From: Candidatus Daviesbacteria bacterium
GTDB lineage: Bacteria > Patescibacteriota > Microgenomatia > Daviesbacterales > UBA10151
DNA length: 64,000 nt
Assembly: GCA_016432425.1 (NCBI GenBank)
Contig: CP066688.1
Span: forward strand, 20,368 to 84,367
Direction: 5' to 3'
Position numbers and translations under genes: made by a program. Below, piece by piece: positions 136 through 50,333 of this stretch; the stretch's first letter is position 1, and every line of letters begins with the position of its first letter. The notes under the pieces were generated by a model. It had not been told where the DNA came from, searched no databases, and worked only from the letters and a program-made list of their open reading frames with translations.

Positions 136-140
136 TTTTG

Positions 141-212
141 AGCCGGTGGACAGAATCGAACTGTCGATCTTCATTTTACGAAAATGCTGCTTTACCACTA
201 AGCTACACCGGC
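141..212 (-). tRNA. tRNA-Thr (anticodon CGU)
   Basis: The reverse complement folds as a 72-nt cloverleaf. Acceptor GCCGGTG/CACCGGC, D-stem GCTT/AAGC and T-arm GACAG-TTCGATT-CTGTC all pair. The anticodon loop is TTCGTAA with one mismatch at the top of the anticodon stem. CCA is not encoded. Confidence 0.8.
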
Positions 213-325
213 CAACTACTATATTTTAAACTTTTTCCTGTTTTCATGCCAGAATATTACATATTTCCCAAAAAAAGCTTACTTTTATTTGTTAAAGTGA
301 GCTTCTCAAAGGGGGTGATAAATTA

Positions 326-490
326 ATGAGGGGCAGAAAAGGTGGACGCAAGGGCAAAGACCAGAACCAAAGAAGGTCCCAAACTGAAGACCAATCTCGC
401 CAGGATGAATCTGAACGTGGGTTTTACAGTGAGATTAGCCGTCAAGACAGGCAGAAACCAGAGATGGATCAAGGTTCTGAAATACCATAA
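326..490 (+). CDS. small (54 aa) highly charged Arg/Lys/Gln-rich protein, possible KGG-type stress protein
   Basis: An ATG at 326 sits 8 nt downstream of the SD-like AGGGGGTG. The product MRGRKGGRKGKDQNQRRSQTEDQSRQDESERGFYSEISRQDRQKPEMDQGSEIP is low-complexity and probably disordered. It is below the ORF-track size cutoff. Confidence 0.45.
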   Translation: MRGRKGGRKGKDQNQRRSQTEDQSRQDESERGFYSEISRQDRQKPEMDQGSEIP

Positions 491-538
491 ATTAGACCAG
501 CCAATCCCGGGATAGGCTAGAAGGGGGGTGAAAATATA

Positions 539-778
539 ATGCAAAATATTCAAGGGGCTATAGATCATCTTAAAAATCATCAAACTTATCCTGCTACCAA
601 AGAGAATCTTATCCAGGAATGTAATAAACTATCTGATTTCTCGGAAGAGGACAAAAAGGAGTTTATGGATAATCTTCCTGAAGGTAACTACACCTCAGCA
701 GAGGAAGTCATGGAAGCTTTGGGATGGAAGGAGCAGGAGGGGATGCCAAAAAGTCAAGGTACTCAATCTATGGCCTAA
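539..778 (+). CDS. small protein with DUF2795-like pattern
   Basis: A strong SD (GGGGGGTG) lies 7 nt upstream. The pattern YPATKENLIQEC........LPEGNYTSAEEVMEALG resembles DUF2795 proteins. Domain identity is by recall only. Confidence 0.5.
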   Translation: MQNIQGAIDHLKNHQTYPATKENLIQECNKLSDFSEEDKKEFMDNLPEGNYTSAEEVMEALGWKEQEGMPKSQGTQSMA

Positions 779-852
779 ACTTACTATCTAATTTTTGATC
801 TCTAATACATTTATTTAGGGCAGGATTTAGTCTAATTTCGAGCTTGCGAGAA

Positions 853-916
853 ATCAAGCTCTGCTTAATACGAAGTATCAAGCTCTGCTTAATACGAAGT
901 ATCAAGCTCTGCTTAT
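853..916. repeat. 24-bp tandem direct repeat, about 2.7 copies (unit ATCAAGCTCTGCTTAATACGAAGT)
   Basis: Copies at 853-876 and 877-900 are identical, with a partial third copy at 901-916. Upstream, GAGCTTG (842-848) is the inverted complement of CAAGCTC in copy 1, so the two can form a hairpin. Confidence 0.8.
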
Positions 917-984
917 GCTTTAGAACTAAAAAATGTATAAGTATGCATAGTAAATATCGTTTTAGATTTTAGGCTATAGGACAT

Positions 985-1012
985 TGACATTTAGACAACA
1001 CTTTAGTAAAAT
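985..1012 (+). promoter_or_regulatory. sigma70-like promoter (TTGACA, 16-nt spacer, TAAAAT)
   Basis: TTGACA at 985-990 and TAAAAT at 1007-1012 are both near-consensus. No CDS follows before the terminator at 1045-1072. Confidence 0.45.
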
Positions 1013-1044
1013 TCTTTTGCAGTCTGGAAACAGATTGTTATCAA

Positions 1045-1072
1045 CCGCCCGTTGCAAAAGACGGGCTTTTTT
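1045..1072 (+). terminator. intrinsic terminator (GCCCGT stem, 8-nt loop, ACGGGC, then TTTTTT)
   Basis: GCCCGT (1047-1052) pairs with ACGGGC (1061-1066) and is followed by T6 at 1067-1072. It acts on the plus strand only, because the minus strand has no T-run after the stem. Confidence 0.65.
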
Positions 1073-1110
1073 ATGGCCTCCTTTCAATTAGCTTCCTAAT
1101 CTTCCTTAAA

Positions 1111-1248
1111 TCAATATAAGCATCTGCCCTTTCCTCTGTCTTTTGCCGAAAGCTCCAAATTGGCTGCATCAATAAAAACAGCTACTTTCCCTTTAGTAAG
1201 TTTCTTTAATTCTGCGTTCACTAAATTTATCTTAGCATAAACTTTCTG
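1111..1248 (-). pseudogene. remnant of an NYN/LabA-like (DUF88) domain gene
   Basis: The minus frame reads QKVYAKINLVNAELKKLTKGKVAVFIDAANLELSAKDRGKGRCLY*. The KVAVFIDxANL pattern is the N-terminal NYN signature. There is no ATG, a stop lies just upstream, and the frame ends after about 45 aa, so this is a truncated fragment. Confidence 0.35.
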
Positions 1249-1273
1249 TTAATTTTTATTGTATAATTTCAAT

Positions 1274-1825
1274 ATGGCAACAGAGCTAAACAAAGAGTTG
1301 GGTAGTCTTATAGATTCTGGTGAATTCGATCCGGAAGTGACAGAAAGGTACCTGCAAAGAATATCGGAAGGTAATTTAACTAGGGATGAAAATCCGTACA
1401 CACACTTTTGTGTATATTTTGCGGCATTTGACCCTCATAAAAAAAGTGTTTTTGTGGGCCACCACAAAAAATCAGGGTTATGGCTTTTTAATGGTGGTCA
1501 CATTGATAGAGGAGAGGGTATTTCTGATGCCTTAGTGAGAGAATCTGGAGAAGAATGGGGCGTAAAAATACCCATAGAAGACGTAAAGAGACCCTTACTT
1601 CTTACAATTACTCAAATTCCAGCTAACCAAAAACAAATATGTAAAACTCACTACGATATTTGGTGTTTTGTACCCAGCGATGAAGATACAGCTAGGTTTA
1701 ATCAGGATTTACTTGCAAAAGAATTTTTTGAAACCAGATGGTTAAGTATTCCAAATGCAAGAAGCCGTATAACTGATCTCAGTACACTTAAAGCTCTGGC
1801 ATTATTAGAACAAAGGCTCAAATAA
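1274..1825 (+). CDS. NUDIX hydrolase
   Basis: A complete Nudix box is present in GGHIDRGEGISDALVRESGEEWGV (Gx5Ex7REUxEExGU). An ATG at 1274 lies 7 nt after a TATAAT at 1262-1267. The ORF-track start at 1259 is a TTG. Confidence 0.85.
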   Translation: MATELNKELGSLIDSGEFDPEVTERYLQRISEGNLTRDENPYTHFCVYFAAFDPHKKSVFVGHHKKSGLWLFNGGHIDRGEGISDALVRESGEEWGVKIPIEDVKRPLLLTITQIPANQKQICKTHYDIWCFVPSDEDTARFNQDLLAKEFFETRWLSIPNARSRITDLSTLKALALLEQRLK

Positions 1826-2385
1826 AAGAAACTCTATCCCACTGCTTCCTCGCTTACTAACGCCTATGGTTGTTTCACTACAGAATATAAGTGATGTGAT
1901 GAATTAAGATGCTACCTTTAGATGAAATAAGAAAGTATTATCCTAATGCATCGGAAGATAAGTTAAAAGATATACAGGAAGTTGTTTACTTATTGGCTTG
2001 TGCAGTTATGCAAGAATTTTATGGGCCGCCTTTGGCGAGCCTCGCTCATTGAGCGGGTCAAAGTGGATGGGAAATTTTGAAGAGTCTGGTCAAGAGGAGA
2101 AATAGCGAGCTGAAAGCTAGTTCGACTCTCGTTAGGGTGTAAGATTATAAGCCCAAACTTTAACGAATTTTAGTAACATTCCGAAGCTAAAATTTGTCAG
2201 TTCGATTAAATTCCTATGTCCTTCGACTTCGCTCAGGATTATAAGAGCACCGGATGCAAATTATTTTGAACCCCTACCTGAATATGTCATAATCGAGTTT
2301 AACAGAATCAGAAAAGCACTACAAGCTTTAGAGGAGGGATAATTACCTACAATTCTTTCTTACATTCTGATAAAATTGACGGGAA

Positions 2386-3042
2386 ATGAAAATTATTAAT
2401 ACTTCCACCAAGGATAGGATGTATACGGCCTGGCTCAAAAGTGAGTTTTACAGAATGAAGGACACTTTGAGTCAGGAGCAAATAGGCCTTATTGAGACAC
2501 CAAATTTCAATGATCAAGCAGAAAATGAGCAAAGGGAAAATTTGATTTTGAACATATATGGCAGGAGTCCAATAATGGATCATGTTCCGACAGCCATTAC
2601 TTGGTATGAGGTTGAAATTGAAGAAAAAGATTTAGAAAATTTATACCTACTGGCTATATGGGATTGGTTTATCGATACAGGAAGAACATTTAAGCTCTCA
2701 GGAGTTTCGAAAAATTTGTCTAGCGGACACGGACACCGTATTTCTAATTTTCCTCCGGGGGCTGCAGATCACAAGATAAAAATAGATGAAATGTTAAAAG
2801 TTATGAATGACAACGTTCAAGATATTGTAATGATTAGTTCTTCTAAAGATGGACCATTTACAATTATTGATGGTACTCATCGTTCCAGCTTACTAACTAT
2901 TAAAGGTGGTCTACCAGGAACTAAAGCATATTTGGGCGTAGCATCAGACTTATCTAAATGTGTTTGGGCACCTGAATGGGAGAACTATGAACAGAATCTG
3001 GCTGAGCTAAATCGAATAGTAAATGAAGGATACTTATGGTGA
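2386..3042 (+). CDS. hypothetical protein with C-terminal ParB/sulfiredoxin-like fold (DGTHR motif)
   Basis: The C-terminal half reads KIKIDEMLKVMNDNVQDIVMISSSKDGPFTIIDGTHRSSLL. This resembles the ParB/Srx nuclease-domain core (hydrophobic strand, then DGxHR, compare DGQHR/DGQQR families). The N-terminal 120 aa have no recognizable pattern. The stop overlaps the start of the next gene. Confidence 0.5.
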   Translation: MKIINTSTKDRMYTAWLKSEFYRMKDTLSQEQIGLIETPNFNDQAENEQRENLILNIYGRSPIMDHVPTAITWYEVEIEEKDLENLYLLAIWDWFIDTGRTFKLSGVSKNLSSGHGHRISNFPPGAADHKIKIDEMLKVMNDNVQDIVMISSSKDGPFTIIDGTHRSSLLTIKGGLPGTKAYLGVASDLSKCVWAPEWENYEQNLAELNRIVNEGYLW

Positions 3043-3848
3043 GTGAAAGTATAATAGCATCAAGTTCTGCTACGATAAATCAAACGTTACCTACGGTGGT
3101 AAATGGCTTAACAGGTTTGGGTGCAATGGTAGCCGCAGCCTTTTTCGGTGGATTATTTGCCGGAATTTGGACGAATTACTTTGAGACTAAAAGGAGAATC
3201 CATGACAAGCGACACGATAGGTATTACGAACATAGGAATACTATTGTTCAATTCGAGCAAGAGTTAATTCCCCTCAGGGTAAACATCTCTCGAGATATAA
3301 CTTCAATAGCTGATGCCATAAAAAACACTAATGAACTGAATATTCGATTTATATTGAGATTCTACAAATTATTTTTAAGCACAGGTTTGGGGTTAAAACT
3401 CTTAAATTTAGACTTAATCAATAAATATGCAGAACTTTATTCAGCTATTGAGAGTTTAAATTCAGATATTGACTACGTTTCTGGAATGATATCATCAGTC
3501 ATAGAAGATCAAAAAGAGGACAAGATTGATCCCTCTAAAATTGAAGCTTATAAAGTATTCTTGCCTCAATTACAAGACGCATGCGAGCAAATTGACCAGA
3601 AATCATTAGAGCTTTTGGCTACGAGTAAGTTAACAATAGGTAAAGAGGATAAAAGAATAAGAGATAAATATATTGATGATGGTAAGGAAATAAGATACTC
3701 ACTTACCAAAGAAGCACTGGCTAAAAAGTACAAAGGTATTAAAAAAGAGGAGGATGGTTCTCTACATAAAGGTGAGAAACAACCTAAGTTCGTTTCTCCA
3801 TTTCTAGATTTAAAGAAAGTGCTTATTACAACAACTCCCGTAGTGTAA
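3036..3848 (+). CDS. hypothetical membrane protein (one N-terminal TM helix plus a long coiled-coil/charged region)
   Basis: A TM helix (LTGLGAMVAAAFFGGLFAGIW) is followed by about 200 aa of K/E/D-rich helical sequence. It overlaps the upstream gene by 7 nt (ATGGTGA), indicating translational coupling. Confidence 0.55.
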   Translation: MVSESIIASSSATINQTLPTVVNGLTGLGAMVAAAFFGGLFAGIWTNYFETKRRIHDKRHDRYYEHRNTIVQFEQELIPLRVNISRDITSIADAIKNTNELNIRFILRFYKLFLSTGLGLKLLNLDLINKYAELYSAIESLNSDIDYVSGMISSVIEDQKEDKIDPSKIEAYKVFLPQLQDACEQIDQKSLELLATSKLTIGKEDKRIRDKYIDDGKEIRYSLTKEALAKKYKGIKKEEDGSLHKGEKQPKFVSPFLDLKKVLITTTPVV

Positions 3849-3978
3849 AAAGACTAAAGGAAGAGACGGGATTTGAACTCAAAGGAAGCTGGTTCAATGT
3901 AAAAATGTTGAGTGGCGGACGGGGTGCTAAACAAAATATGAATTATTTGTGCCTACAATGTAAAAAATTTCTATTTAG

Positions 3979-4049
3979 AGCGGGATACGGGAGTCGAACC
4001 CGTCTCTCTACCTTGGGAAGGTAGTGTTGAACCGCTCAACTAATCCCGC
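3979..4049 (-). tRNA. tRNA-Gly (anticodon CCC)
   Basis: The reverse complement folds as a 71-nt cloverleaf: acceptor GCGGGAT/ATCCCGC, D-stem GTTG/CAAC, anticodon stem CTACC/GGTAG with loop TTCCCAA, T-arm ACGGG-TTCGACT-CCCGT. The discriminator is U, as expected for bacterial tRNA-Gly. Confidence 0.85.
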
Positions 4050-4091
4050 GTTTCTTTCAATTTTACCCCAATTTGTGGTAAATTTTAAGGG

Positions 4092-4817
4092 ATGAGTTAC
4101 CGATCCAGAATACGTTCCCACTCTACCCGCCGTTCTAAGCAAAATTTTTTTGCCACCATTATTATTGCTTTACTGCTACTTTTTATTAGTATTAACTGGA
4201 TACTGCCAGCTTTAGTTTCAGTCATGGGGAAAATCCGCAATCTTGGGAATCAGACCAGCAAAATCTCTTCCCAAGTAGCTGATAACCCCACTTTGGCTCC
4301 CCCAGTTTTTATTATTCCTTATCAGGCCACCAATTCTGCCCAAATAGACATTAAAGGCTACGCCACCACTAACTCTAAGGTAGAACTTTATTTGGATGAG
4401 GAGTTAAAAGACACTGTGGCTGTAAACGAAGATGGTACTTTTGTCTTCCAAAATATTTCTTTAAATTTGGGTCTTAATAATATTTATGGTAAAACCCTGG
4501 ATGAAAAAGACCAAGCTAGTTTGCCTTCTAAAAACATCCAGCTAATTTATGATAATACCAAACCTTCACTGCAAGTAAATGAGCCGGAAGACGGCAAGAC
4601 AGTTACGGGCGGGGAGAAAAATATTAAAATATCCGGCAAAACTAATCCTGATGCACAAGTTACTGTCAATGAAGTTACCGTAATTGTAGACAAAGAAGGT
4701 AATTTTTCCACTAGTCAAGCCTTAAATGAGGGTGATAATAATTTTACTATTAGGGCTGGCGATGCGGCCGGAAATTACGCTGAGGTAGTAAGGCGGGTAA
4801 GTTACAAATCTTCATGA
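4092..4817 (+). CDS. membrane-anchored extracytoplasmic protein with two Ig-like (Big-type) beta domains
   Basis: An N-terminal basic stretch plus one TM helix is followed by repeated beta-rich modules (NEDGTFVF... / KEGNFST...) ending in GNYAEV. Its stop overlaps the next start (ATGA). Confidence 0.65.
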   Translation: MSYRSRIRSHSTRRSKQNFFATIIIALLLLFISINWILPALVSVMGKIRNLGNQTSKISSQVADNPTLAPPVFIIPYQATNSAQIDIKGYATTNSKVELYLDEELKDTVAVNEDGTFVFQNISLNLGLNNIYGKTLDEKDQASLPSKNIQLIYDNTKPSLQVNEPEDGKTVTGGEKNIKISGKTNPDAQVTVNEVTVIVDKEGNFSTSQALNEGDNNFTIRAGDAAGNYAEVVRRVSYKSS

Positions 4818-6013
4818 GTATTTTAAGTTGGGTATTGGTGGTAGCTATTTGTGCGGGGCAACTGATTAAAATCTCTTTTGGTGAGGGAGGGATTACTATT
4901 TTAGATCTGACAGTGGGATTTTTAGCAATTATTAATTTCTTTAGCTGGATAACTTCTGTCAAAACTTTTAAAATAAATTTAATCAATTTCTCTACTATGG
5001 GTTTTATCATTGCAGCAGTAGTTTCCTTAATCCTGTCACCCATTCACTTAACTGCCAATGAAAAACTGATTGCTGCCTCCTATATTGTCCGGTTAGGAGC
5101 CTTTTTCTCATTGCTGTGGTTTCCGAGTAAATTATTATCCCCTTTACAAAAGGATAGTACAAAAATTTTACTCTTTTCCGGGGTTATCATAGCTGTTTTG
5201 GGGATAGCGCAACTAACCTTTTTTCCGGATTTACAATTTTTAGCTGCTGCAAATTTTGACCCTCATTATTTACGGACCGTTTCGACCTTTTTAGACCCTA
5301 ATTTTACCGGGGCTTTCCTAAGTTTAACAGCCATAATTTTGTGGCCTAAATTATTTACTAAAGATACTTTTAAATCAAATGTGTGGATTTTTATCCTAAT
5401 TTATATTACCCTGTTAACCACTTTTTCCAGAGGAGGATATTTAAGCTTAGTTAGTGGCTTATTAATTATTTCCTTAATTAATAAATCCTTTAAACAAGTT
5501 CTCTTAACCATAGTTTTAGGCGCTATTTTACTTTTTTCTTTTCAACAGTATACTTTACAGGTAGCAGCTCCCAGAAAGATTGACCGGGCCCAGTCAGCAG
5601 CTGCCCGCTTGGATACTTGGCAGCAAGGTTGGAATTTATTTCAAAGATATCCCATTTTGGGGGTAGGGTTTAACGCTTATCGTTATGCCTTGAAACAACT
5701 TAATTTGGCTGATGAACAGTTTTTAAGCAAAAAAGGTGCCTCTACTAATGATTCAAGTTTACTGTATGTGGCCGCTACTACCGGAATAATCGGGCTGGGA
5801 TTTTATTTAAGCTTCTTGGGAGGAATTTTAAAACTAGGCTGGTATAAAATATCACACCTCGGGGGTATGATATTAATTGGAGGTTTAATAGCCCTGCTTT
5901 CTCAAGGCTTTTTCGCCAACACCCTCTTTTATCCATTCCTCCTAATCTGGATAATACTAATAATTTATTCTGTGGGCACTGAGGGACTTGAACCCCCGAC
6001 ATCTGCAATGTGA
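4814..6013 (+). CDS. Wzy_C / O-antigen ligase-family polytopic membrane protein (WaaL/PglL-like)
   Basis: About 10 TM segments flank an external loop with the Wzy_C signature RLDTWQQGWNLFQRYPILGVGFNAY...SSLLYVAATTGIIG. The last 13 codons run antisense through tRNA-Val. Confidence 0.7.
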   Translation: MSILSWVLVVAICAGQLIKISFGEGGITILDLTVGFLAIINFFSWITSVKTFKINLINFSTMGFIIAAVVSLILSPIHLTANEKLIAASYIVRLGAFFSLLWFPSKLLSPLQKDSTKILLFSGVIIAVLGIAQLTFFPDLQFLAAANFDPHYLRTVSTFLDPNFTGAFLSLTAIILWPKLFTKDTFKSNVWIFILIYITLLTTFSRGGYLSLVSGLLIISLINKSFKQVLLTIVLGAILLFSFQQYTLQVAAPRKIDRAQSAAARLDTWQQGWNLFQRYPILGVGFNAYRYALKQLNLADEQFLSKKGASTNDSSLLYVAATTGIIGLGFYLSFLGGILKLGWYKISHLGGMILIGGLIALLSQGFFANTLFYPFLLIWIILIIYSVGTEGLEPPTSAM

Positions 6014-6044
6014 ATGCAGCGCTCTACCACTGAGCTAAGTGCCC
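5973..6044 (-). tRNA. tRNA-Val (anticodon CAC)
   Basis: The reverse complement folds as a 72-nt cloverleaf: acceptor GGGCACT/AGTGCCC, D-stem GCTC/GAGC, anticodon stem CTGCA/TGCAG with loop TTCACAT, T-arm GGGGG-TTCAAGT-CCCTC (one G-U pair). The discriminator is A. Confidence 0.85.
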
Positions 6045-6088
6045 GCATCAAACGGAATTTTAGTAAACACATTTTAACATTACGACTA

Positions 6089-6118
6089 TTGCATCTCAAC
6101 CTGAAACTTTGCGATAAT
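6089..6118 (+). promoter_or_regulatory. promoter of lepB (TTGCAT, 18-nt spacer, TGcGATAAT extended -10)
   Basis: The -35 is TTGCAT at 6089-6094 and the extended -10 is TGCGATAAT at 6110-6118. The ATG at 6126 lies 7 nt after the -10, so the mRNA would be leaderless. Confidence 0.45.
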
Positions 6119-6125
6119 TTAGGTT

Positions 6126-6716
6126 ATGGATCCTAGTTCTTATAATCCCTCTGCTCAGGATGACCGAGGTTTTTGGGGGAGTTTAGGCGCCCATTTTATT
6201 GACCTTTTTGAAACTTTTGTCATTATTGGGGCAATTTTCCTCCTTTTCTACCAATTTGTAGGCCAGCCACATCGGGTTTCCGGTAACTCCATGGTGCCTA
6301 CTTATTTAGATGGAGATTTTATTCTAACTGATAAATTAACCTATCGTTTTAACCACCCCCAAAGAGGAGAGGTGGTGATTTTAAAAAATCCCCGGGATGA
6401 GTCAATAGATTTTATTAAAAGGGTCATTGCTTTGCCGGGAGACAGTATCCAAATTCTGGGAGGCTCTGTTTATCTTAACGAGAAGTTGCTTATTGAACCT
6501 TATTTACCGGCTGACACAGTTACCCAGAGCGGCAATTTCCTGCGTGAAGGAGAGACAGTTACTGTAGGGTCCAATCAATACTTTGTCTTTGGTGACAACA
6601 GAGCCCATTCTTCTGATTCCAGAGAGTGGGGGCCAGCGACTAAAGAAGAAATTATCGGCCGGGCTTTTTTGCGTTATTTTCCCCCTCAGAGGGTAAGGCC
6701 GTTAGTCGGACTTTAG
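6126..6716 (+). CDS. lepB: signal peptidase I (S26 family)
   Basis: An N-terminal TM helix is followed by box B GNSMVPT (Ser nucleophile), box D IKRVIALPGD (Lys) and box E FVFGDNRAHSSDSREWG. Confidence 0.85.
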   Translation: MDPSSYNPSAQDDRGFWGSLGAHFIDLFETFVIIGAIFLLFYQFVGQPHRVSGNSMVPTYLDGDFILTDKLTYRFNHPQRGEVVILKNPRDESIDFIKRVIALPGDSIQILGGSVYLNEKLLIEPYLPADTVTQSGNFLREGETVTVGSNQYFVFGDNRAHSSDSREWGPATKEEIIGRAFLRYFPPQRVRPLVGL

Positions 6717-7565
6717 ATTAAAATAACCGGTGATCGCTTGATGAATATCCTCTAAGATTGGTGTTGTTTGAGAAGGATCTCCTTCTATCACCATATCAAT
6801 TTTGACTCTTTTAGCAGTTTGAGAACATTTAACTTGTGAATTTTTTAACCGGGTAGAAAAAAGCGTGGTTAGATCATCTTGCAATCTATCAACTTCATCA
6901 GAAAGAATATGCATGCTCTCAATCACTGCGCTTTTGCGGGGATTAATGCCTGCTTTAGCCCGGAAACGGCGCACCAGTTCTTCTGTTCCCCTAACAGATA
7001 AATTCCTTTTCAAAACTTCTTTATAAGCTTCAATAATTAAATGAGGGTCTTCTAAGGCTGCTAGCGCTCTGGCATGGCCTTCAGTGGTTTGCCCTGACAT
7101 CAAAGCATCTTTAAGGGCATCAGGTAAAGTTAAGAGCCTAATGGTATTAGAAATATAGGCCGGGCTTTTGCCCACCCTAGTGGCAATTTCATTATTAGTT
7201 AAGGCAAACTCATCCATCAAACGTTTATAAGCTTGGGCCCGCTCCAGAGGATTTAAATCCATCCGCTGCACGTTTTCCACAATAGCCATTTCCAACATTC
7301 CCCGCGGATTGGTCTCCCGGATAATTACCGGCACTTTAGATAACCCTACCAGTTTAGCTGCCCGCCAACGCCGCTCGCCTGCCACAATTTGAAATCCAGC
7401 CGGAGTTTTGGCCACTACTAGAGGTTCCAAAATACCATGCTCTTTAATTGAATCTGCCAACTCCGCCAGGGAATCCGGAGTAATTAAACCACGAGGCTGC
7501 AGGGGATTAGGCTGAAGTAAATTAATATCCAGTTCGTTAATTTGTTCGTTTTGTTGATCGTCCAT
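6702..7565 (-). CDS. parB: ParB/Spo0J chromosome partitioning protein
   Basis: The ParB N-terminal box LLQPNPLQPR...LAELADSIKEHGILEPLVV...IVAGERRWRAAKL is present, with an HTH and a C-terminal dimerization domain. No parA is adjacent. Confidence 0.85.
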   Translation of the reverse strand: MDDQQNEQINELDINLLQPNPLQPRGLITPDSLAELADSIKEHGILEPLVVAKTPAGFQIVAGERRWRAAKLVGLSKVPVIIRETNPRGMLEMAIVENVQRMDLNPLERAQAYKRLMDEFALTNNEIATRVGKSPAYISNTIRLLTLPDALKDALMSGQTTEGHARALAALEDPHLIIEAYKEVLKRNLSVRGTEELVRRFRAKAGINPRKSAVIESMHILSDEVDRLQDDLTTLFSTRLKNSQVKCSQTAKRVKIDMVIEGDPSQTTPILEDIHQAITGYFNLKSD

Positions 7566-7810
7566 TATATAACGCTTACTGTTAGCCTACCGATTCTTTT
7601 TTTAAAAACAACACTACCAGCAGTAGTGGCAAAAATAGTGAAATCATTACCTTGACGGGTACCTATCCCTGGAAAAACTTTATTACCTTTTTGTCTGATG
7701 ATAATATTGCCTGATTTAACTGCTTGCCCACCAAAAACTTTCACGCCTAAACGTTTAGATTTTGAATCTCTATTAGTTCTGGTTGTACCTCCACCTTTTT
7801 TATGTGCCAT
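7565..7810 (-). CDS. rpmA: 50S ribosomal protein L27
   Basis: The sequence [28 protein letters not shown]...IIIRQKG is near-identical in pattern to bacterial L27. Confidence 0.9.
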
Positions 7811-8178: not shown

Positions 8179-9237
8179 TTATGTCAATTTTCTACTCATA
8201 TTAGCAACAGAAGCAGACAACCCTAAACAGATTAAGGTGGCAAGTAGCGAACTTCCTCCATAGGAAACCAGCGGCAAAGTAATACCGGTAATGGGCAAAA
8301 TACCCACATTCATGCCAATATTGACAAAAACTTGAAATAAAATCATGGTGACTACCCCATAGATGATCAAATAGCCAAAACTATTCCCCGTCTCTTTACT
8401 TACTTTAAGCAGATAAAAAATTAAATAACCATATAAACTTAAAATTACCAAGGCTCCGACTAAACCTAATTCTTCGGAAATAGCGGCAAAAATAAAATCA
8501 GTCCGGAATTCGGGTAAAAATTGTAACCTGGATTGGGTACCGCTGCCCAAACCCCGGCCAAAAACTTGTCCAGAGCCTACGGCAATAGTAGACTGGATAA
8601 TATTGTATCCGGTTCCCAGAGGGTCACTGTTGGGAGAAAGGAAATTAAACACCCTTTGTTTTTGGTAATCTTGCAGGTTTAGCCAGATTAAGGGCATGGT
8701 AATAGTAAATAAAAAACCAAGCAGGACAACTTTTTTAAAGGAAATTCTAGTTATTAAAAGCATTCCTAAAAAGATTGCCGTAATAGTTAAAGTCGTACCC
8801 AAATCAGGTTGTTTAAAAATCAAAAACAAGGCAGGCAAGATAATTCCTACACTTAAGGAAATATTTTTCCAATTTGGTAAATGTTTTGACCAAAAATCAG
8901 CTAACAGTAAAATTAAAACTGGTTTTGCCAGCTCTGAAGGTTGAATATTAAAAAATCCCAGCGGAATCCAACGAACCGATCCTCTAGTTTCTATACCAAC
9001 AACAAATACCACTATTAACAATAGTAAAGTTATTAAATAAGTCGGATAAATAATATGAGTTAAGGCTCGGTAATCGGAATGAGAAAGTAGTAAAAAAATA
9101 ATGAATCCCAAGGCAGTAGCAAATAATTGTTGGCTGGCTAGGGTTAAAGAAGAAGATAAAAGTACGATGATGCCAATGGACAGTAGTAGTAAACTGGACA
9201 AAATTATGGGCAGGTTAATATCTTTTAAAAACCTCAT
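8179..9237 (-). CDS. rodA: SEDS-family peptidoglycan glycosyltransferase, RodA-like
   Basis: A 10-TM protein carries the SEDS motifs GSVRWIPLGFFNIQPSELAKP and PEFRTDFIFAAISEELG. It is distinct from the dcw-encoded ftsW paralog, hence RodA. Confidence 0.75.
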   Translation of the reverse strand: MRFLKDINLPIILSSLLLLSIGIIVLLSSSLTLASQQLFATALGFIIFLLLSHSDYRALTHIIYPTYLITLLLLIVVFVVGIETRGSVRWIPLGFFNIQPSELAKPVLILLLADFWSKHLPNWKNISLSVGIILPALFLIFKQPDLGTTLTITAIFLGMLLITRISFKKVVLLGFLFTITMPLIWLNLQDYQKQRVFNFLSPNSDPLGTGYNIIQSTIAVGSGQVFGRGLGSGTQSRLQFLPEFRTDFIFAAISEELGLVGALVILSLYGYLIFYLLKVSKETGNSFGYLIIYGVVTMILFQVFVNIGMNVGILPITGITLPLVSYGGSSLLATLICLGLSASVANMSRKLT

Positions 9238-35721: not shown

Positions 35722-37178
35722 GGCTCGGGATCGCTCCCCTCTAGCGGGTGTTGAATTTTAGTTAAATCAGCAATTACAAATTCTGAACTCTTTTTTAAAA
35801 CAGTAAAATGCCGAATCACCCAATTAGTTTTATCATCATAGGAGGTAGAAATATAATAATGTACTCCATATTCTGCCACCAAATCTACCAAGGGCAAAAC
35901 CGTCGTGGCAAAACCTGCCCGGTTAGTTTGATACAAAAAGGCAGTGTCACCGTTATAAGGAGCCACCACCAGCGCATCTTTAGGTAAAATTTGATCCGCC
36001 ATTCTTCCCGCTTGGATAATAGGGGGGTTGTTAATCTTATAAAACTCTTTTACCGGAACCCAAGTTAAATAAAAAGTTAACCCTAAGAAAATTAAACTTA
36101 AAGGTACACTTATCAACCGAGGAATCAATTCCTGCGAACGGTTAATCAAAAAATTTACACCCATTGAGACAAAAACAGCCAACACCGGGACTAAAACTGT
36201 TTGGTAATAATTATGCCTGACATTACCACTGGCAAAAATGGCGATATTTAAAAACATAGAAAATGCCCACCAATGGAAAAAATAATTTCTAGCTTCCGGT
36301 CGGCGCAAAAATCCTAAGAAAAACAAGAAAAACCCTGTTACTCCCAAAATCTCTCCCCCCAATCGGTTTTGAACTATCCACCACCAAAAAGCAGGTCTAA
36401 ATCTAATCCCATCCCCATTTATTAACCAATTAGAAGCCGGAATTCCTTCTGGTTGTTGCAAGATCCACAATCTCCATAGAATAAACGGTATCATTGCCAG
36501 CAAAAATAAAACCATAAATTTAAGTTGCCTCTTAAGAGGTTTTTGAATTCCCAAATAAATAAGCGGTAAGAAAAAAAAGATTGCCCAAGGTTTGATTAAA
36601 AAGGCAATACTGGTAAAAAAGACGGCCCACCATTTAAAATGATTTTCTTCAATAAATTTTATCCAAAAATAAATCATCCCCAAAGAGAAAAAAATTAAAG
36701 TTGGTTCCGGCAAGGTAGTCCGGGAGAAGAAAATATTAAATGGTAAAAAGGTAAAAATGGCAGTTGATAAAACACCTAAAAATTTCCCCTTGAACGCTCT
36801 GACAATTAAAAAAAGAAAGACGCCGGCACCTAAAGAAACTAGGGCAGAAACAAGTCTTAAAAATAAATCACTAATACCAAATAGTAAAAAGAGCGGATAA
36901 ACTAAAATATTATAGACAGGAAACTCGACAAAACGGAAACGGTCTGGATTAGGGATGGGTTTTTCCGCTACCCCAGACATATCGTCATATTTAGGTAAAA
37001 ATGGGTTAAAACCCTCTTTGACAAAATTGCGCGTTACTGCGGCAGTATCTGCCTGACGCCATGAATGCCAGTCAGCAATGGGGGCATTTATTTTATAAAG
37101 ACGCACTCCCAAACCCATTATTAAAATTAAGCTCAACCAAAAATACTGATTTTTAAAAATTGCCAGCAGTCTAATCAT
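35718..37178 (-). CDS. GT-C polytopic membrane glycosyltransferase, PMT_2/GT39/ArnT-like
   Basis: The first loop carries the motif HSWRQADTAAVTRNF, characteristic of PMT_2/ArnT-type enzymes. There are more than 10 TM segments and a C-terminal soluble domain. Confidence 0.6.
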   Translation of the reverse strand: MIRLLAIFKNQYFWLSLILIMGLGVRLYKINAPIADWHSWRQADTAAVTRNFVKEGFNPFLPKYDDMSGVAEKPIPNPDRFRFVEFPVYNILVYPLFLLFGISDLFLRLVSALVSLGAGVFLFLIVRAFKGKFLGVLSTAIFTFLPFNIFFSRTTLPEPTLIFFSLGMIYFWIKFIEENHFKWWAVFFTSIAFLIKPWAIFFFLPLIYLGIQKPLKRQLKFMVLFLLAMIPFILWRLWILQQPEGIPASNWLINGDGIRFRPAFWWWIVQNRLGGEILGVTGFFLFFLGFLRRPEARNYFFHWWAFSMFLNIAIFASGNVRHNYYQTVLVPVLAVFVSMGVNFLINRSQELIPRLISVPLSLIFLGLTFYLTWVPVKEFYKINNPPIIQAGRMADQILPKDALVVAPYNGDTAFLYQTNRAGFATTVLPLVDLVAEYGVHYYISTSYDDKTNWVIRHFTVLKKSSEFVIADLTKIQHPLEGSDPEP

Positions 37179-38562
37179 GTTTAAATTTAACTAAAGCAAC
37201 AGAGGCTCCCAAAACTAACCATAAAATAAAAGAAATTTTTGATGACTCCAACGCATCAATAAAAGTAGAATTTATGAAAATTACTAAAACTCCCACAAAA
37301 GAAGCAGTTAAGAGATAAAAAGTGAAATTTTTATGATCAGGCCGTTTTTTCCAAATAGTCCGCAGTATTATCCACCAAATCAGGGCAAAACTTAAAAATC
37401 CTAACATACCGGTTTCCCCTAAACTTCTTAGATAATCATTATCGGTGGCAATGGTGATAGAGGAATAACCGCTACCCAAAAAAGGATTTTTAAAAAAGGC
37501 TCTTACAGCTCTAGGCCACTCCACATTTAACCTGATTTCAAAAGAGCGGAAAACTCCTAGCTCAGTAGAGTTAATAGGTTCGCCTGGAGCAACGTCAACT
37601 GGTATCCCGGAGAAGGTGGCAGAACTGCTTGCAGCATTTTCAATAGAAAAATGTTTGGTAGGATTGGGCTTTTGGGGGGGCGGGCTATATTTAGCTCCCC
37701 CTCCTCCTAATAAATTCACCGTCACAGTGGCGACAGTTCTGTGCCGAAGATCAGGAGAGATAACAAAAGCTCCCAGACTTAAAAGTATTAATAAAAATAT
37801 TAATTTACGCTGACCCACAAACCACAAAACTGCCGCTGCTCCCAGTATGGTTGACAAAAAAGAAACCCGGGCAGCAGTTAGACTAAGTAATATAAAACCC
37901 AACAAAGAAGAGAAAAGTATCAGTAGTTTTTCTTTTAGCTTTCTAACATAAAACAAAAAGGCTGTGGCAAAGATTAAAAATACTGACAGATAAACCGCCA
38001 GGTCATAATGACCGGCGAAAGTAGAATTAACCCTAGCGCCGGGAGTTAAAAATAATATTAAACCTTTAGAAAATTCCTTATTCATAGTAGAAATAACCGG
38101 GAAGGAAAACCATTGTTGGCCAAAGCCATAAAATATTATTATTAAAGTGGTTAGCAGTGAAATTTTCAGTAAATTTTTAATTTGATTTAAATTCTGGACG
38201 GCATCCAAAGCCACAAAAAATAAAATCATCACCTCTACTCTTCTTAAAAAATGTAAGATACTTAAGTGCCAGGATACAGTATGGGTCACCAAGATGCCGG
38301 AAAAAACTGACAGCGCTCCTACTGCCCAAAATAAAATAAAAGCCTGATATAAAGGCTGTTTTAAACTGTCTCCTATAGAACCTACTTTAGAAATTAACCA
38401 CCATAAAAATACCACTGCCACAATAAAATCTTCTAATCTGACTGCCACATAAGTACCCGGCACACTAATTAAAGGAAATTTAGGGTACAGAGGTATAAAA
38501 ACAAATAAAAAATATACCCACCAAATTAAATATTTACGGCAAAGAAACGATAACTTTTGCAT
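37171..38562 (-). CDS. Wzy_C / O-antigen ligase-family membrane protein (second copy in window)
   Basis: WPRAVRAFFKNPFLGSGYSSI...DNDYLRSLGETGMLGF is the Wzy_C signature. An unusual Gly/Pro-rich insert GGGGAKYSPPPQKPNPTKHF lies in the large external loop. Confidence 0.7.
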   Translation of the reverse strand: MQKLSFLCRKYLIWWVYFLFVFIPLYPKFPLISVPGTYVAVRLEDFIVAVVFLWWLISKVGSIGDSLKQPLYQAFILFWAVGALSVFSGILVTHTVSWHLSILHFLRRVEVMILFFVALDAVQNLNQIKNLLKISLLTTLIIIFYGFGQQWFSFPVISTMNKEFSKGLILFLTPGARVNSTFAGHYDLAVYLSVFLIFATAFLFYVRKLKEKLLILFSSLLGFILLSLTAARVSFLSTILGAAAVLWFVGQRKLIFLLILLSLGAFVISPDLRHRTVATVTVNLLGGGGAKYSPPPQKPNPTKHFSIENAASSSATFSGIPVDVAPGEPINSTELGVFRSFEIRLNVEWPRAVRAFFKNPFLGSGYSSITIATDNDYLRSLGETGMLGFLSFALIWWIILRTIWKKRPDHKNFTFYLLTASFVGVLVIFINSTFIDALESSKISFILWLVLGASVALVKFKHD

Positions 38563-48246: not shown

Positions 48247-49101
48247 TTAGCTTAGCCTCCTCTTAATTTTTTTCAAGGGAGTTTGGAAAAAAGCGGGGAT
48301 TTTGTATTTTAAAGGCATTTTCTTTAAAGGATTTTCTACCAAAGTGGGGTATTTTTTAAAAAATACCCCGGGAAGTTTAAAATCTTTGGGGAAAGGAGTA
48401 CCCAGTTCATATTTAAATCTCATTTGTCTTTCAAAAACCTCCCCATCTTTACTGGATCTTCTTAAATGGCTGGCATGTAAATAAGGAGCATCTAAAAAGA
48501 GCAATTTGTCTTCTCCCCGCTCATAAATTAATTTACCGTCCTTATCAAAATAACCCTCGCGGAAAAACCCTTGTTGGTTGGAATGAGTTTCTATATGCAG
48601 CCCGGGGATTTTCATATTAATAGCCCGGACATTAAAATGTCCTTTACGACCAGCAATTTGATACTCACCACCCAGCTCTTCCTGATAATGGAAAATATCT
48701 CCCAATAACATATAAGTGGGAACTACCATACATTCTGCACTATCATTTTGCTCCATGGCAGATGTGAGTTTCCGAATTGAGCCATCCGGCCAAATCTCAT
48801 CTCCATCTAAAATTAAAATCCAGTCTGCTTTTGTTTCATCTAACATCTGCTGGCGATACTTCCCCAGCTCAATCATATCTTTGTTTTTGGGATACTCCTT
48901 TAAAACAATTTTTTTGTTTTTAATGGTTTTAATAATTTCTACAGTATGGTCAGTTGATCCCAAATCATAGACCAAAACCCGATCTACCCAGTCTATGACA
49001 CTATTTATGGCAAACCAGATAAATCTTTCTTCATTCCTAACTAAACAATGTACCCAAATTTTTATTTTCATGTTTTTCTGGCAAACTCCTTGACTGCCCA
49101 A
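48247..49101 (-). CDS. GT2-like (GT-A fold) glycosyltransferase
   Basis: VHCLVRNEERFIWFAINSV...VLVYDLGSTDHT is the GT-A N-terminus, with the DxD region ILDGDE. Confidence 0.6.
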   Translation of the reverse strand: MGSQGVCQKNMKIKIWVHCLVRNEERFIWFAINSVIDWVDRVLVYDLGSTDHTVEIIKTIKNKKIVLKEYPKNKDMIELGKYRQQMLDETKADWILILDGDEIWPDGSIRKLTSAMEQNDSAECMVVPTYMLLGDIFHYQEELGGEYQIAGRKGHFNVRAINMKIPGLHIETHSNQQGFFREGYFDKDGKLIYERGEDKLLFLDAPYLHASHLRRSSKDGEVFERQMRFKYELGTPFPKDFKLPGVFFKKYPTLVENPLKKMPLKYKIPAFFQTPLKKIKRRLS

Positions 49102-50333
49102 AAAGTCGGCAGGATAAAATTTAATATGTTGCCAACTAATACGGTGGCTGCCGCCCCTTCAATTCCCCATAGCGGTATCAATTTGATACTTAAAAAAATC
49201 ACCATTAATAAATTAATAATGGAAAAGATTACAAAAACTTGTGGTTTGGCAAAGTAATAAAAGATGGACTGATGGGCTGGTACGGAAAGCAAAAAAAGCA
49301 GTTGAGCAATAAATAAAATAGTAAATGCTCTGACACTGCCTTCAAAAACCGATCCATAAATTAAGGGAATTAATAAATTGGCCACCGGAATTAATAAAAT
49401 TCCCAAAAACGCCAGTCCTAAAACGAGCAGCTCTACCTTTTTAAAATAATTCCAAGCCTGACTTCTGGTATTGAAACTGGCAAATTTAGGGGCCACCACC
49501 GCAGCTAAGGCAAAAATTAGCTGCGGTAAAACTCCGGCAACCTGCAAAGCCACCCCATATAGACCAACCTGTCCAATAGATAAAAATTTAGCAGCCATGA
49601 AAGTGTCCACTCTGGCACCTAAAGCTGCCACAATAGTCAAAAGTATCATCCATCTATTAAATTTAAAAAATTCCTTGATCACTGATTGTTCATTTTTCTC
49701 TACTAAAAAATTAGGCAAAAGAAACAACCCTAAAAAGAAAAAAATAAAAGGAATAACAATGTAGATTATTAAGGTATTTTCTAAAGTTAATCCAACAGTT
49801 AATGAAAGAAGCAAAATAAGAACTAACCGGATGGAGTTAGAGGTGATATTAAATGCCGACCAAACCCAGTATTTTTGTAGCCCTTGAAAAGATGTAGCAA
49901 TAAAAGAAAAAAACATTGCTCCCCCTGCCCCTAACAAAGACATTCTTAAGGGTTGTACCAGCTCTGACTTCCCGAAAAAGCTCTGTGCTAAAATGGGCGC
50001 AATTAACCAGCCAAATATGGCAACTGTCAGCCAAACTAATATTTTTATCTCTAGCCCCAATTTTAAGAAAAGTTTATATTTACCATTAAGGTATTTACTG
50101 ATAAACCTAATTATCCCTGTATCTATGCCTAGACTGCCAATATCTGCGAGTATTGTAATGGTAGCAACAGCTATGGTAAAAATCCCGAAATTTTCCGATC
50201 CCAGGCTGCGAGCCACTAATATGTAAAATAAAATTCCCAAAACTCCATTGATGACAGTTCCGGAAGTGGTCACAAAAGAATCTTTTAAGGTTTTAGTTTG
50301 TAAAGCTAGTTTAAAAGTATTAATTAATTCCAT
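49068..50333 (-). CDS. Wzx-type oligosaccharide flippase (MOP superfamily, PST family)
   Basis: A 12-TM protein whose N-terminus LKDSFVTTSGTVINGVLGILFYILVARSLG is typical of polysaccharide biosynthesis (Wzx) proteins. Confidence 0.7.
   Translation of the reverse strand: MELINTFKLALQTKTLKDSFVTTSGTVINGVLGILFYILVARSLGSENFGIFTIAVATITILADIGSLGIDTGIIRFISKYLNGKYKLFLKLGLEIKILVWLTVAIFGWLIAPILAQSFFGKSELVQPLRMSLLGAGGAMFFSFIATSFQGLQKYWVWSAFNITSNSIRLVLILLLSLTVGLTLENTLIIYIVIPFIFFFLGLFLLPNFLVEKNEQSVIKEFFKFNRWMILLTIVAALGARVDTFMAAKFLSIGQVGLYGVALQVAGVLPQLIFALAAVVAPKFASFNTRSQAWNYFKKVELLVLGLAFLGILLIPVANLLIPLIYGSVFEGSVRAFTILFIAQLLFLLSVPAHQSIFYYFAKPQVFVIFSIINLLMVIFLSIKLIPLWGIEGAAATVLVGNILNFILPTFWAVKEFARKT

Follow-up and report, generated by a model that had tools for sequence, protein, structure and literature searches.

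Enzymes that share the Wzy_C domain include the WaaL ligases and the PglL/PilO-type protein O-oligosaccharyltransferases (O-OTases). Residues R215, R288 and H338 are important in WaaL and are conserved in PglL (PMC3643930), and the catalytic His of the O-OTases corresponds to H349 in PglL and H324 in PglS (PMC3643930, PMC12800693). A further motif, PF15864 (PglL_A), separates PglL from WaaL (PMC3643930). There is also precedent for an O-OTase gene lying beside the gene of its own substrate, since many pglL genes adjoin pilins (PMC3643930). Here we describe a gene pair in a 64-kb stretch of a metagenome-assembled Candidatus Daviesbacteria genome (contig CP066688.1; hereafter the window), from the Microgenomates of the Candidate Phyla Radiation (CPR). 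The pair comprises a gene for an Ig-like surface protein (4092-4817) and a gene for a Wzy_C-family protein (4814-6013); it is flanked by tRNA-Gly and tRNA-Val, and the Wzy_C coding sequence (CDS) runs into the latter. Our results show that the Ig-like/Wzy_C pair is conserved across Daviesbacteria, where it lies between tRNA-Gly and a variable glycan cassette. We are also highly confident that the overlap between the Wzy_C CDS and the tRNA is an ordinary deletion scar, left when the cassette was lost in the window lineage.

An original prediction, made from the DNA alone, had described an ATGA-overlapping pair between the two tRNA genes, about 23 kb from the main glycan locus, with the last 13 Wzy_C codons antisense through tRNA-Val. 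Each of these points was borne out: the coordinates of both genes were correct, the main locus starts at about 28970, and the antisense codons were confirmed by open reading frame (ORF) calls, ARAGORN and Rfam. The overlap amounts to 42 nt, namely codons 387-399 and the stop codon. Read in antisense, the anticodon loop (ATGTGAA) supplies the stop (TGA, 6011-6013), and the GTG at 6010-6012 is the antisense of the CAC anticodon. Among the surveyed loci, which come from 47 GTDB species representatives and reach the S26 signal peptidase gene in 29 cases, only the window has a CDS that overlaps a functional tRNA-Val.

The prediction had further suggested that the overlap might mark a recombination junction, and comparison with the closest relatives upholds this, as they carry a cassette of a family 2 glycosyltransferase (GT2) and a Wzx flippase between Wzy_C and tRNA-Val. 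These relatives, chosen by Wzy_C identity, are L001 (GCA_030651435.1; 71%), L003/L004 (74%) and L005 (72%). Their gene order is tRNA-Gly, Ig-like gene, Wzy_C, GT2 (-), Polysacc_synt-Wzx flippase (-), tRNA-Val (-), S26 and ParB. In blastn comparisons, window positions 3971-5959 matched L001 1024-3015, positions 5984-6052 matched L001 5253-5323 (tRNA-Val), and positions 6089-7567 matched L001 5392-6870 (S26-ParB, 79.9% identity). About 2.2 kb of L001, containing the GT2 and flippase genes, had no counterpart at the window locus. When the junction was read by eye, homology with L001 extended to Ser codon 386 (TCT in the window, TCC in L001) and was followed by the tRNA 3′ end. The right side of the junction is the base after the tRNA-Val discriminator, with a microhomology of 0-2 nt (GT). 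The cassette-bearing relatives share a native Wzy_C tail, NS[VIL]F[NY][KQ]SK, whereas the window protein reads ...YS and then enters the tRNA antisense. Orthologues with an equivalent 13-codon tail had been named as evidence against a junction. None by descent was found, and the tail itself, VGTEGLEPPTSAM, occurs in 0 of 23 aligned orthologues and 0 of the 47 species representatives. A neighbor-joining tree of Wzy_C proteins placed the window as sister to L003, inside the cassette-bearing clade. Because the window nests in a clade with a common cassette and a common native tail, its state is derived.

We consider it extremely improbable that the overlap is an artefact, whether from mis-joining at a tRNA repeat, loss of the true stop codon through a sequencing error or a spurious tRNA call. 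It is true that tRNA genes often break or mis-join metagenome assemblies, and the Logan contig L065 itself ends inside both tRNAs. However, this contig, which was seen in 4 samples, matches window 3979-6000 at 100% identity, and so crosses the junction and covers 28 nt of the tRNA. Since L065 is independent and spans the junction, the junction is real. Moreover, the tRNA-Val scores 72.6 bits, 25 of the 29 loci have a minus-strand tRNA-Val(cac) directly ahead of S26, and the right flank stays syntenic with L001.

The deletion joined Wzy_C codon 386 to the base just past the tRNA-Val discriminator and removed about 2.2 kb with the GT2 and Wzx genes. The native stop codon and the last ~6 codons of Wzy_C went with it, and translation now continues 13 codons into the tRNA antisense until TGA. 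All 12 transmembrane (TM) helices, every family-invariant residue of the Wzy_C protein and tRNA-Val are intact; the deletion is about the largest possible without damage to either the Wzy_C gene or tRNA-Val. The new tail follows TM12 and is predicted to be cytoplasmic (topology estimate), with a pLDDT of ~51 for the last block of the AlphaFold model. In relatives, the 3′ end of Wzy_C often overlaps a convergent glycosyltransferase (GT) gene by 15-35 nt. Since, in addition, the C-terminal tails across the species loci are short, variable and usually basic, this part of the protein is a tolerant region. Relocation of the lost genes within the window was considered and rejected, as only 28-32% paralogous matches were obtained. 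The Wzx gene at 49068-50333, the only flippase in the window after the cassette loss, matched the cassette flippase of L001 only in part, at 28%. Transcription at the junction may also have changed. In relatives, the flippase and GT2 genes follow tRNA-Val on the same strand after 20 nt. A scan of the window found no terminator-like site between tRNA-Val and the body of Wzy_C, and the promoter-like site at 6099-6071 would drive read-through transcription antisense into Wzy_C. The overlap thus shows cassette loss in a streamlined CPR genome, trimming DNA right up to two functional genes.

The opposite polarity, in which the abutment of Wzy_C and tRNA-Val is ancestral and the cassettes of relatives are insertions at the tRNA 3′ end, is very unlikely. 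It gains some credit from the distant locus L032, where Wzy_C reads through a tRNA-Val 3′ pseudo-fragment with the look of an att-type duplication, and from L043, where a partial tRNA-Val 3′ half lies beside the full gene. Nevertheless, the nesting of the window among relatives that share the GT2-flippase cassette and the native tail argues against it, as does the difference in junction codon between L032 and the window. When the window, L001, L003 and L005 were scanned with a tRNA-Val profile (nhmmer), none yielded a further tRNA-Val fragment, so that no fragment marks the Wzy_C end in these relatives, and no integrase was seen among the listed genes of the loci inspected. The idea that the cassettes are integrase-mediated tRNA islands was also rejected, since tRNA-Val fragments occur only in L032 and L043 and none occurs in the window's clade.

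The tRNA-Val sequences of these loci yielded several additional observations. L032:6470-6765 holds three tandem tRNA-Val-like sequences on the minus strand. The first copy is a 3′ fragment with an insert of ~48 nt flanked by GGGATT; the Wzy_C CDS reads through it and ends in the tail YVGTEGL...GIEPPTSTI. The second copy is degenerate, with CCA (24.9 bits), and the third is intact (73.4 bits). The tandem looks as if recombination at the 3′ end of the tRNA had occurred repeatedly and left these remnants. At L043:12937-13049, an incomplete tRNA-Val, its 3′ half (profile positions 29-73), directly adjoins a full tRNA-Val next to the flippase, as an att-like duplication. The tRNA-Val of the window is 96% identical to that of L031 and 93% to that of L032 (ParB ~67%), and 74% identical to that of L001 (ParB 92%), so that the tRNA-Val sequences are at odds with the genes that flank them. 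L001, L009 and L017 have a 77-nt type of tRNA-Val, with CCA encoded in L001 and L009. Import of the junction from an L032-like donor was considered and dismissed, because the 3′ end of the window Wzy_C gene gives a gap-free alignment with L001 but not with L032. The GGGCAC acceptor stem is common to the tRNA-Val of the window and that of L003, and judging from these sequences the window type is probably ancestral.

The original prediction of a real pairing between the two genes is supported by the survey. An Ig-like gene was found no more than 3 kb upstream of Wzy_C and on the same strand in 43 of the 47 species loci; it was inverted in two, and two were not assessable. The genes abut in 8 loci and in the window's clade, and the same 4-nt ATGA overlap is present in L001, L003, L005, L006 and L009. 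In most loci, a gene of ~1 kb on the opposite strand (~352 aa) separates them. The copy at L007:4934-5998 matches the PIG-V-like Mannosyl_trans2 GT-C family (48.6 bits). The window's clade lacks this GT-C gene, of which the 64-kb window contains no homologue. The same tRNA-Gly also immediately precedes the Ig-like gene in L001, L009, L011, L014, L026 and L036. On the other side, S26-ParB synteny is kept in L001, L007, L009, the P0100 locus and the surveyed species loci. Many GTDB records with a Daviesbacteria-type locus (L010, L014, L015, L022 and other 'binchicken' records) are titled 'uncultured Gammaproteobacteria bacterium', and these titles appear to be mislabelled.

Between these flanks, the distance from Wzy_C to S26 ranges from 207 to 7510 nt in the 29 loci, compared with 110 nt in the window, and on account of this range we regard the interval as a hypervariable glycan cassette. 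Its contents vary as well: GT2 with Wzx; GT2, methyltransferase and Wzx; GT4, methyltransferase, Wzx and nitroreductase; PMT_2, GT1s and Wzx; or nothing. Independent losses of the cassette were found in L051 (88-nt spacer), L032, L014 and the P0100 locus, where Wzy_C leads straight into S26. In L014, a flippase remnant at 2525-2929 (an ORF of ~135 codons, compared with 407 aa when intact) lies between Wzy_C and tRNA-Val and is a cassette caught in decay.

As to the enzyme, the profile search that had been proposed with the original prediction gave a clear Wzy_C assignment (PF04932; 64.1 bits against a gathering threshold of 31.7, residues 192-332). The AlphaFold model (pLDDT 84.9, pTM 0.86) has 12 TM helices, and the loop charges fit a large outer loop at residues 252-315. 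The top Foldseek match in the PDB was WaaL of Cupriavidus metallidurans (CmWaaL, 7tpg_B; E 9e-7, TM-score 0.50), followed by FtsW at ranks two and three, with TM-scores of 0.36-0.38 for FtsW/RodA, and no other PDB family was significant in that search. A family profile run against the PDB retrieved only 7tpg (E 2e-4). Alignments with HMMER (against 7tpg) and hhalign (against E. coli K-12 WaaL) equate R206 with WaaL R215 and R265 with R288. Conservation was assessed by aligning the window protein with 150 representatives (151 sequences in all), which were clustered at 50% and had bit scores of 562 to 220; the family as a whole has 1394 representatives at E<=1e-30. R206 and R265 are kept in all aligned residues (150 and 149, respectively). 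D149, H151, R154, S315, G324 and G327 are, like the two Arg, near-universal, and the DxHxxR loop is invariant.

In contrast to the Arg pair, the catalytic His was not found. There is no His in residues 306-327 of the window protein, and the position of WaaL H338 and PglL H349 holds D313 of the motif D-[SN]-S, within an invariant N-D-S-S. The spacing D-S-x9-G324-x-x-G327 matches H-N-x9-G-x-x-G, and the D313 position is Asp in 143 of the 150 representatives. Proteobacterial and Streptomyces relatives obtained in a pattern scan keep the His. Asp also occupies this position in the second paralogue of the window (37171-38562; DNDYLRSLGETGMLG, DNDYL...) and in a Shapirobacteria homologue (L057:7929-8993; DNSFLFIWANAGLFS). 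No match to PglL_A (PF15864) at E<=0.1 was obtained in a Pfam scan, nor did FTSW_RODA_SPOVE match the protein in Pfam, and the sole NCBIfam match was to the exosortase-associated O-glycosylation ligase at 40 bits, against a cut-off of 188. Because the catalytic His is replaced by Asp and PglL_A is absent, we do not file the enzyme as WaaL or PglL. By its sequence it belongs to the Wzy_C/WaaL-fold superfamily, as an 'Asp-type' member. The check for a periplasmic-loop Arg/His therefore had a split outcome, with both Arg residues present and the His replaced. Given the same replacement across the family, in the second paralogue and in the Shapirobacteria homologue, CPR annotations of the type 'O-antigen ligase family protein' should not be read as WaaL or PglL.

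The partner had been described as a membrane-anchored protein with two Ig-like domains. Pfam Ig-like matches and the AlphaFold model (pLDDT 86.3) agree with this, with an N-terminal helix at residues 8-50, a disordered linker at 53-63 and two sets of strands at 72-153 and 160-239. The protein is thus bitopic: a variable, disordered linker connects its N-terminal TM helix with two Ig-like beta-sandwich domains in tandem. All 72 hits of the family are in Daviesbacteria/Microgenomates, and Foldseek returned generic tandem Ig/Fn3 modules only. Near-invariant positions comprise W36 and P39 in the TM helix and the strand LAPPV..IPYEAT; the former point to a TM-TM contact, as judged from the alignment. 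The LAPPV..IPYEAT segment was considered as a sequon and rejected. It makes up strand one of domain 1, with KPxLxIxEPEDG as its counterpart in domain 2, and is thus structural rather than an obvious acceptor site. We also considered PamR, a CPR pilus anchor with two fibronectin type III (FnIII) domains encoded in the pam operon. PamR has a C-terminal TM helix (bioRxiv 10.64898/2026.03.03.709456). This candidate was rejected because of the reversed topology, the low score (25.6 bits against a cut-off of 300 for NCBIfam NF058578) and the lack of a pam operon and of pilin or chaperone neighbours.

The original prediction had likened the pair to PglL/PilO-type enzymes with their substrate, and to WaaL-like ligases. 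Membership in either group did not hold, given Asp313, the missing PF15864 match, a neighbour that is no pilin and the lack of a clear sequon. It is accordingly unlikely that the enzyme is a PglL/PilO-type general protein O-OTase with the Ig-like protein as its dedicated substrate. The Wzy_C domain, the disordered Ser/Thr-containing linker of the partner and a co-oriented neighbour that is a conserved surface protein, as with pglL and pilins (PMC3643930), would all agree with that assignment, but the equivalent of PglL H349 is Asp, and the exosortase-associated O-glycosylation ligase match falls far below its cut-off.

What, then, might the pair do? Our tentatively favored reading is that the enzyme is a ligase-like en-bloc glycan transferase that works with its Ig-like partner. 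We favor it because the gene adjoins a conserved surface-protein gene, some cassettes encode a single GT, the pair survives cassette loss and a second paralogue could polymerise. The enzyme would act at the external side of the membrane, on undecaprenyl-diphosphate-linked glycans delivered by a Wzx flippase, with the two conserved Arg residues holding the diphosphate as in WaaL and PglL. The Ig-like protein would serve as the acceptor, or as a docking or scaffold subunit in complex with the enzyme. After the loss of the cassette, donors would come from the main glycan locus, which encodes a phosphoglycosyltransferase (PGT), GTs, a Wzx and the second Wzy_C paralogue.

A somewhat unlikely but possible alternative is that the enzyme is a Wzy-type polymerase of a small Wzx/Wzy pathway, with the Ig-like protein as co-polymerase or activator, comparable to Wzz or a class B penicillin-binding protein (PBP). 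GT and Wzx flippase genes adjoin Wzy_C in most relatives, the Asp at the catalytic position together with the FtsW structural matches recalls the SEDS (shape, elongation, division and sporulation) polymerases, and the partner combines a single conserved N-terminal TM helix with extracellular domains. Wzy polymerases usually co-vary with their repeat unit. In contrast, this enzyme remains 43-51% identical beside unrelated cassettes (GT2; GT4, methyltransferase and nitroreductase; PMT_2 and two GT1s; or none). The module is also intact after loss of the GT and flippase genes, the Ig-like fold is unlike any polysaccharide co-polymerase (PCP)/Wzz, and a cassette with a single GT suggests a short glycan.

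Several observations weigh against the ligase-like reading. First, since the catalytic His and PglL_A are absent, the reading is built on genomic context and not on signature residues; SEDS polymerases use an Asp in place of the His, a resemblance that somewhat favors a polymerase. Second, the opposite-strand GT-C gene splits the pair in most Daviesbacteria, and translational coupling is thus not universal. Third, the linker of the partner is moderately Ser/Thr-rich (14-35%), and the best candidate site, S/T67, is present in 21 of 27 sequences and is not invariant. Fourth, the deletion could be recent and the Ig-like/Wzy_C module not yet decayed. Finally, the main-locus paralogue is conserved across Daviesbacteria (82% identity to the L001 genome, 2954 hits). 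We had considered the main-locus copy as a variable polymerase and 4814-6013 as a conserved ligase, and this division was rejected as the main-locus copy is even more conserved. Since both paralogues are conserved, ligase and polymerase roles are not assignable by conservation. The original term 'second Wzy_C' was itself partly upheld: the main-locus protein is homologous (hhalign 91.7%), but at 24.8 bits it falls below the Pfam gathering threshold.

A more ambitious version of the ligase-like reading, which we regard as doubtful, is that the pair is a CPR-specific 'protein-anchored O-antigen' system in which an Asp-type WaaL-fold ligase attaches variable glycans, specified by the cassette or the main locus, to the conserved membrane-anchored Ig-like stalk. 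If this were true, the stalk would take the role of lipid A-core in Gram-negative bacteria, the cassette bounded by tRNA-Val would be a serotype-switching locus, and a WaaL/Wzy branch with a mechanism of its own would be defined by the His-to-Asp active site, common to at least 1394 representatives of the family.

The features of the locus are collected in Table 1. The main glycan locus (~28970-59238) encodes a DUF4012 protein, a Bac_transf PGT, many GT4 and GT2 proteins, a Wzx, the second Wzy_C paralogue and four PMT_2-type GT-Cs, one of which also matches a TMEM260-like family. Two of its ORFs, 50320-53028 (902 aa) and 55877-57829 (650 aa), have no credible Pfam family. The window Wzy_C protein is 100% identical to a 399-aa NCBI protein, and the Ig-like protein matches 'hypothetical protein HYW45_00135'. 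The S26 and ParB CDSs are convergent and overlap by 15 nt (6702-6716); convergent 3′ overlaps are frequent in the window genome. On the left side of the window (140-4049), 3.7 kb separate tRNA-Thr(cgt) from tRNA-Gly(ccc), compared with 32 nt in L026. The interval contains a NUDIX protein (1259-1825) with a weak PADLOC PDC-S07 match and two overlapping ORFs without a family (2386-3042 and 3036-3848), and it may be a second tRNA-flanked insertion.

Table 1. Features of the Ig-like/Wzy_C locus and related genes in the 64-kb window.
Feature	Position	Strand	Evidence and remarks
tRNA-Gly(ccc)	3978-4049	-	ARAGORN; Rfam 61.8 bits; left syntenic anchor
Ig-like CDS, 241 aa	4092-4817	+	ORF; Pfam Glucodextran_B/Big_6/Big_7 Ig-like domains
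Wzy_C CDS, 399 aa	4814-6013	+	ORF; Pfam Wzy_C
ATGA stop/start overlap of Ig-like and Wzy_C CDSs	4814-4817	+	Direct sequence reading
Deletion junction	5971-5973	.	blastn against L001, sequence reading, L065
Non-native C-terminal tail VGTEGLEPPTSAM and stop	5972-6013	+	Antisense of tRNA-Val acceptor stem, T-arm and anticodon arm
tRNA-Val(cac)	5972-6044	-	ARAGORN; Rfam 5973-6044, 72.6 bits; intact; CCA not encoded; right syntenic anchor
Promoter-like site TTGAGA-17-TAAAAT, TG-extended	6071-6099	-	Upstream of tRNA-Val; consensus scan, 10/12 match
S26 signal peptidase	6126-6716	+	Pfam; conserved right flank of variable cassette
ParB	6702-7565	-	Pfam; conserved right flank of variable cassette
RodA/FtsW, true copy	8179-9237		Pfam
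Second Wzy_C paralogue, main glycan locus	37171-38562	-	Pfam 24.8 bits; hhalign 91.7%
Wzx-type flippase, main glycan locus	49068-50333	-	Pfam Polysacc_synt

Taken together, these results make the gene pair a lineage-specific, as yet uncharacterised variant within the WaaL/Wzy superfamily, and it is of more use than the overlap. We found no experimental data on Daviesbacteria surface decoration in the literature searched. A conserved, lineage-specific pair of a WaaL-fold enzyme and an Ig-like protein beside a hypervariable cassette offers a testable entry to surface decoration in these CPR bacteria.

In comparison with known systems, the enzyme resembles WaaL (Cupriavidus metallidurans structures, PDB 7TPG/7TPJ) in its Wzy_C domain, 12-TM fold, predicted cytoplasmic location of both termini and aligned Arg pair. 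The D/H-[NS]-x9-G-x-x-G spacing before TM10 and a gene position outside the main glycan locus are also shared. Unlike WaaL, it has an invariant Asp for the His and a dedicated bitopic Ig-like partner, and the similarity is marginal (profile E 2e-4). CPR bacteria are generally considered to lack lipopolysaccharide (LPS), and for this reason the acceptor is not expected to be lipid A-core. With PglL, PilO (TfpO) and PglS it has in common the Wzy_C superfamily, the Arg pair and a co-oriented adjacent surface-protein gene; it differs from them in having no PglL_A motif, no catalytic His and a tandem-Ig neighbour rather than a pilin. The fold superfamily, an acidic putative catalytic residue, a single-pass partner and, in relatives, adjacent Wzx and GT genes recall Wzy and the SEDS proteins RodA and FtsW. 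Unlike SEDS proteins, however, it has no FTSW_RODA_SPOVE domain; unlike Wzz or a class B PBP, its partner is neither a PCP nor a PBP; and unlike Wzy polymerases, the enzyme does not appear to co-vary with the cassette. The locus as a whole is similar to variable O-antigen and capsule loci flanked by conserved genes or tRNAs, in that GTs, a methyltransferase and a flippase lie between conserved flanks, cassette length varies and complete losses occur. In contrast to those loci, one flank is itself a Wzy_C-family gene, and in the window the cassette is empty and this flank is fused to the tRNA.

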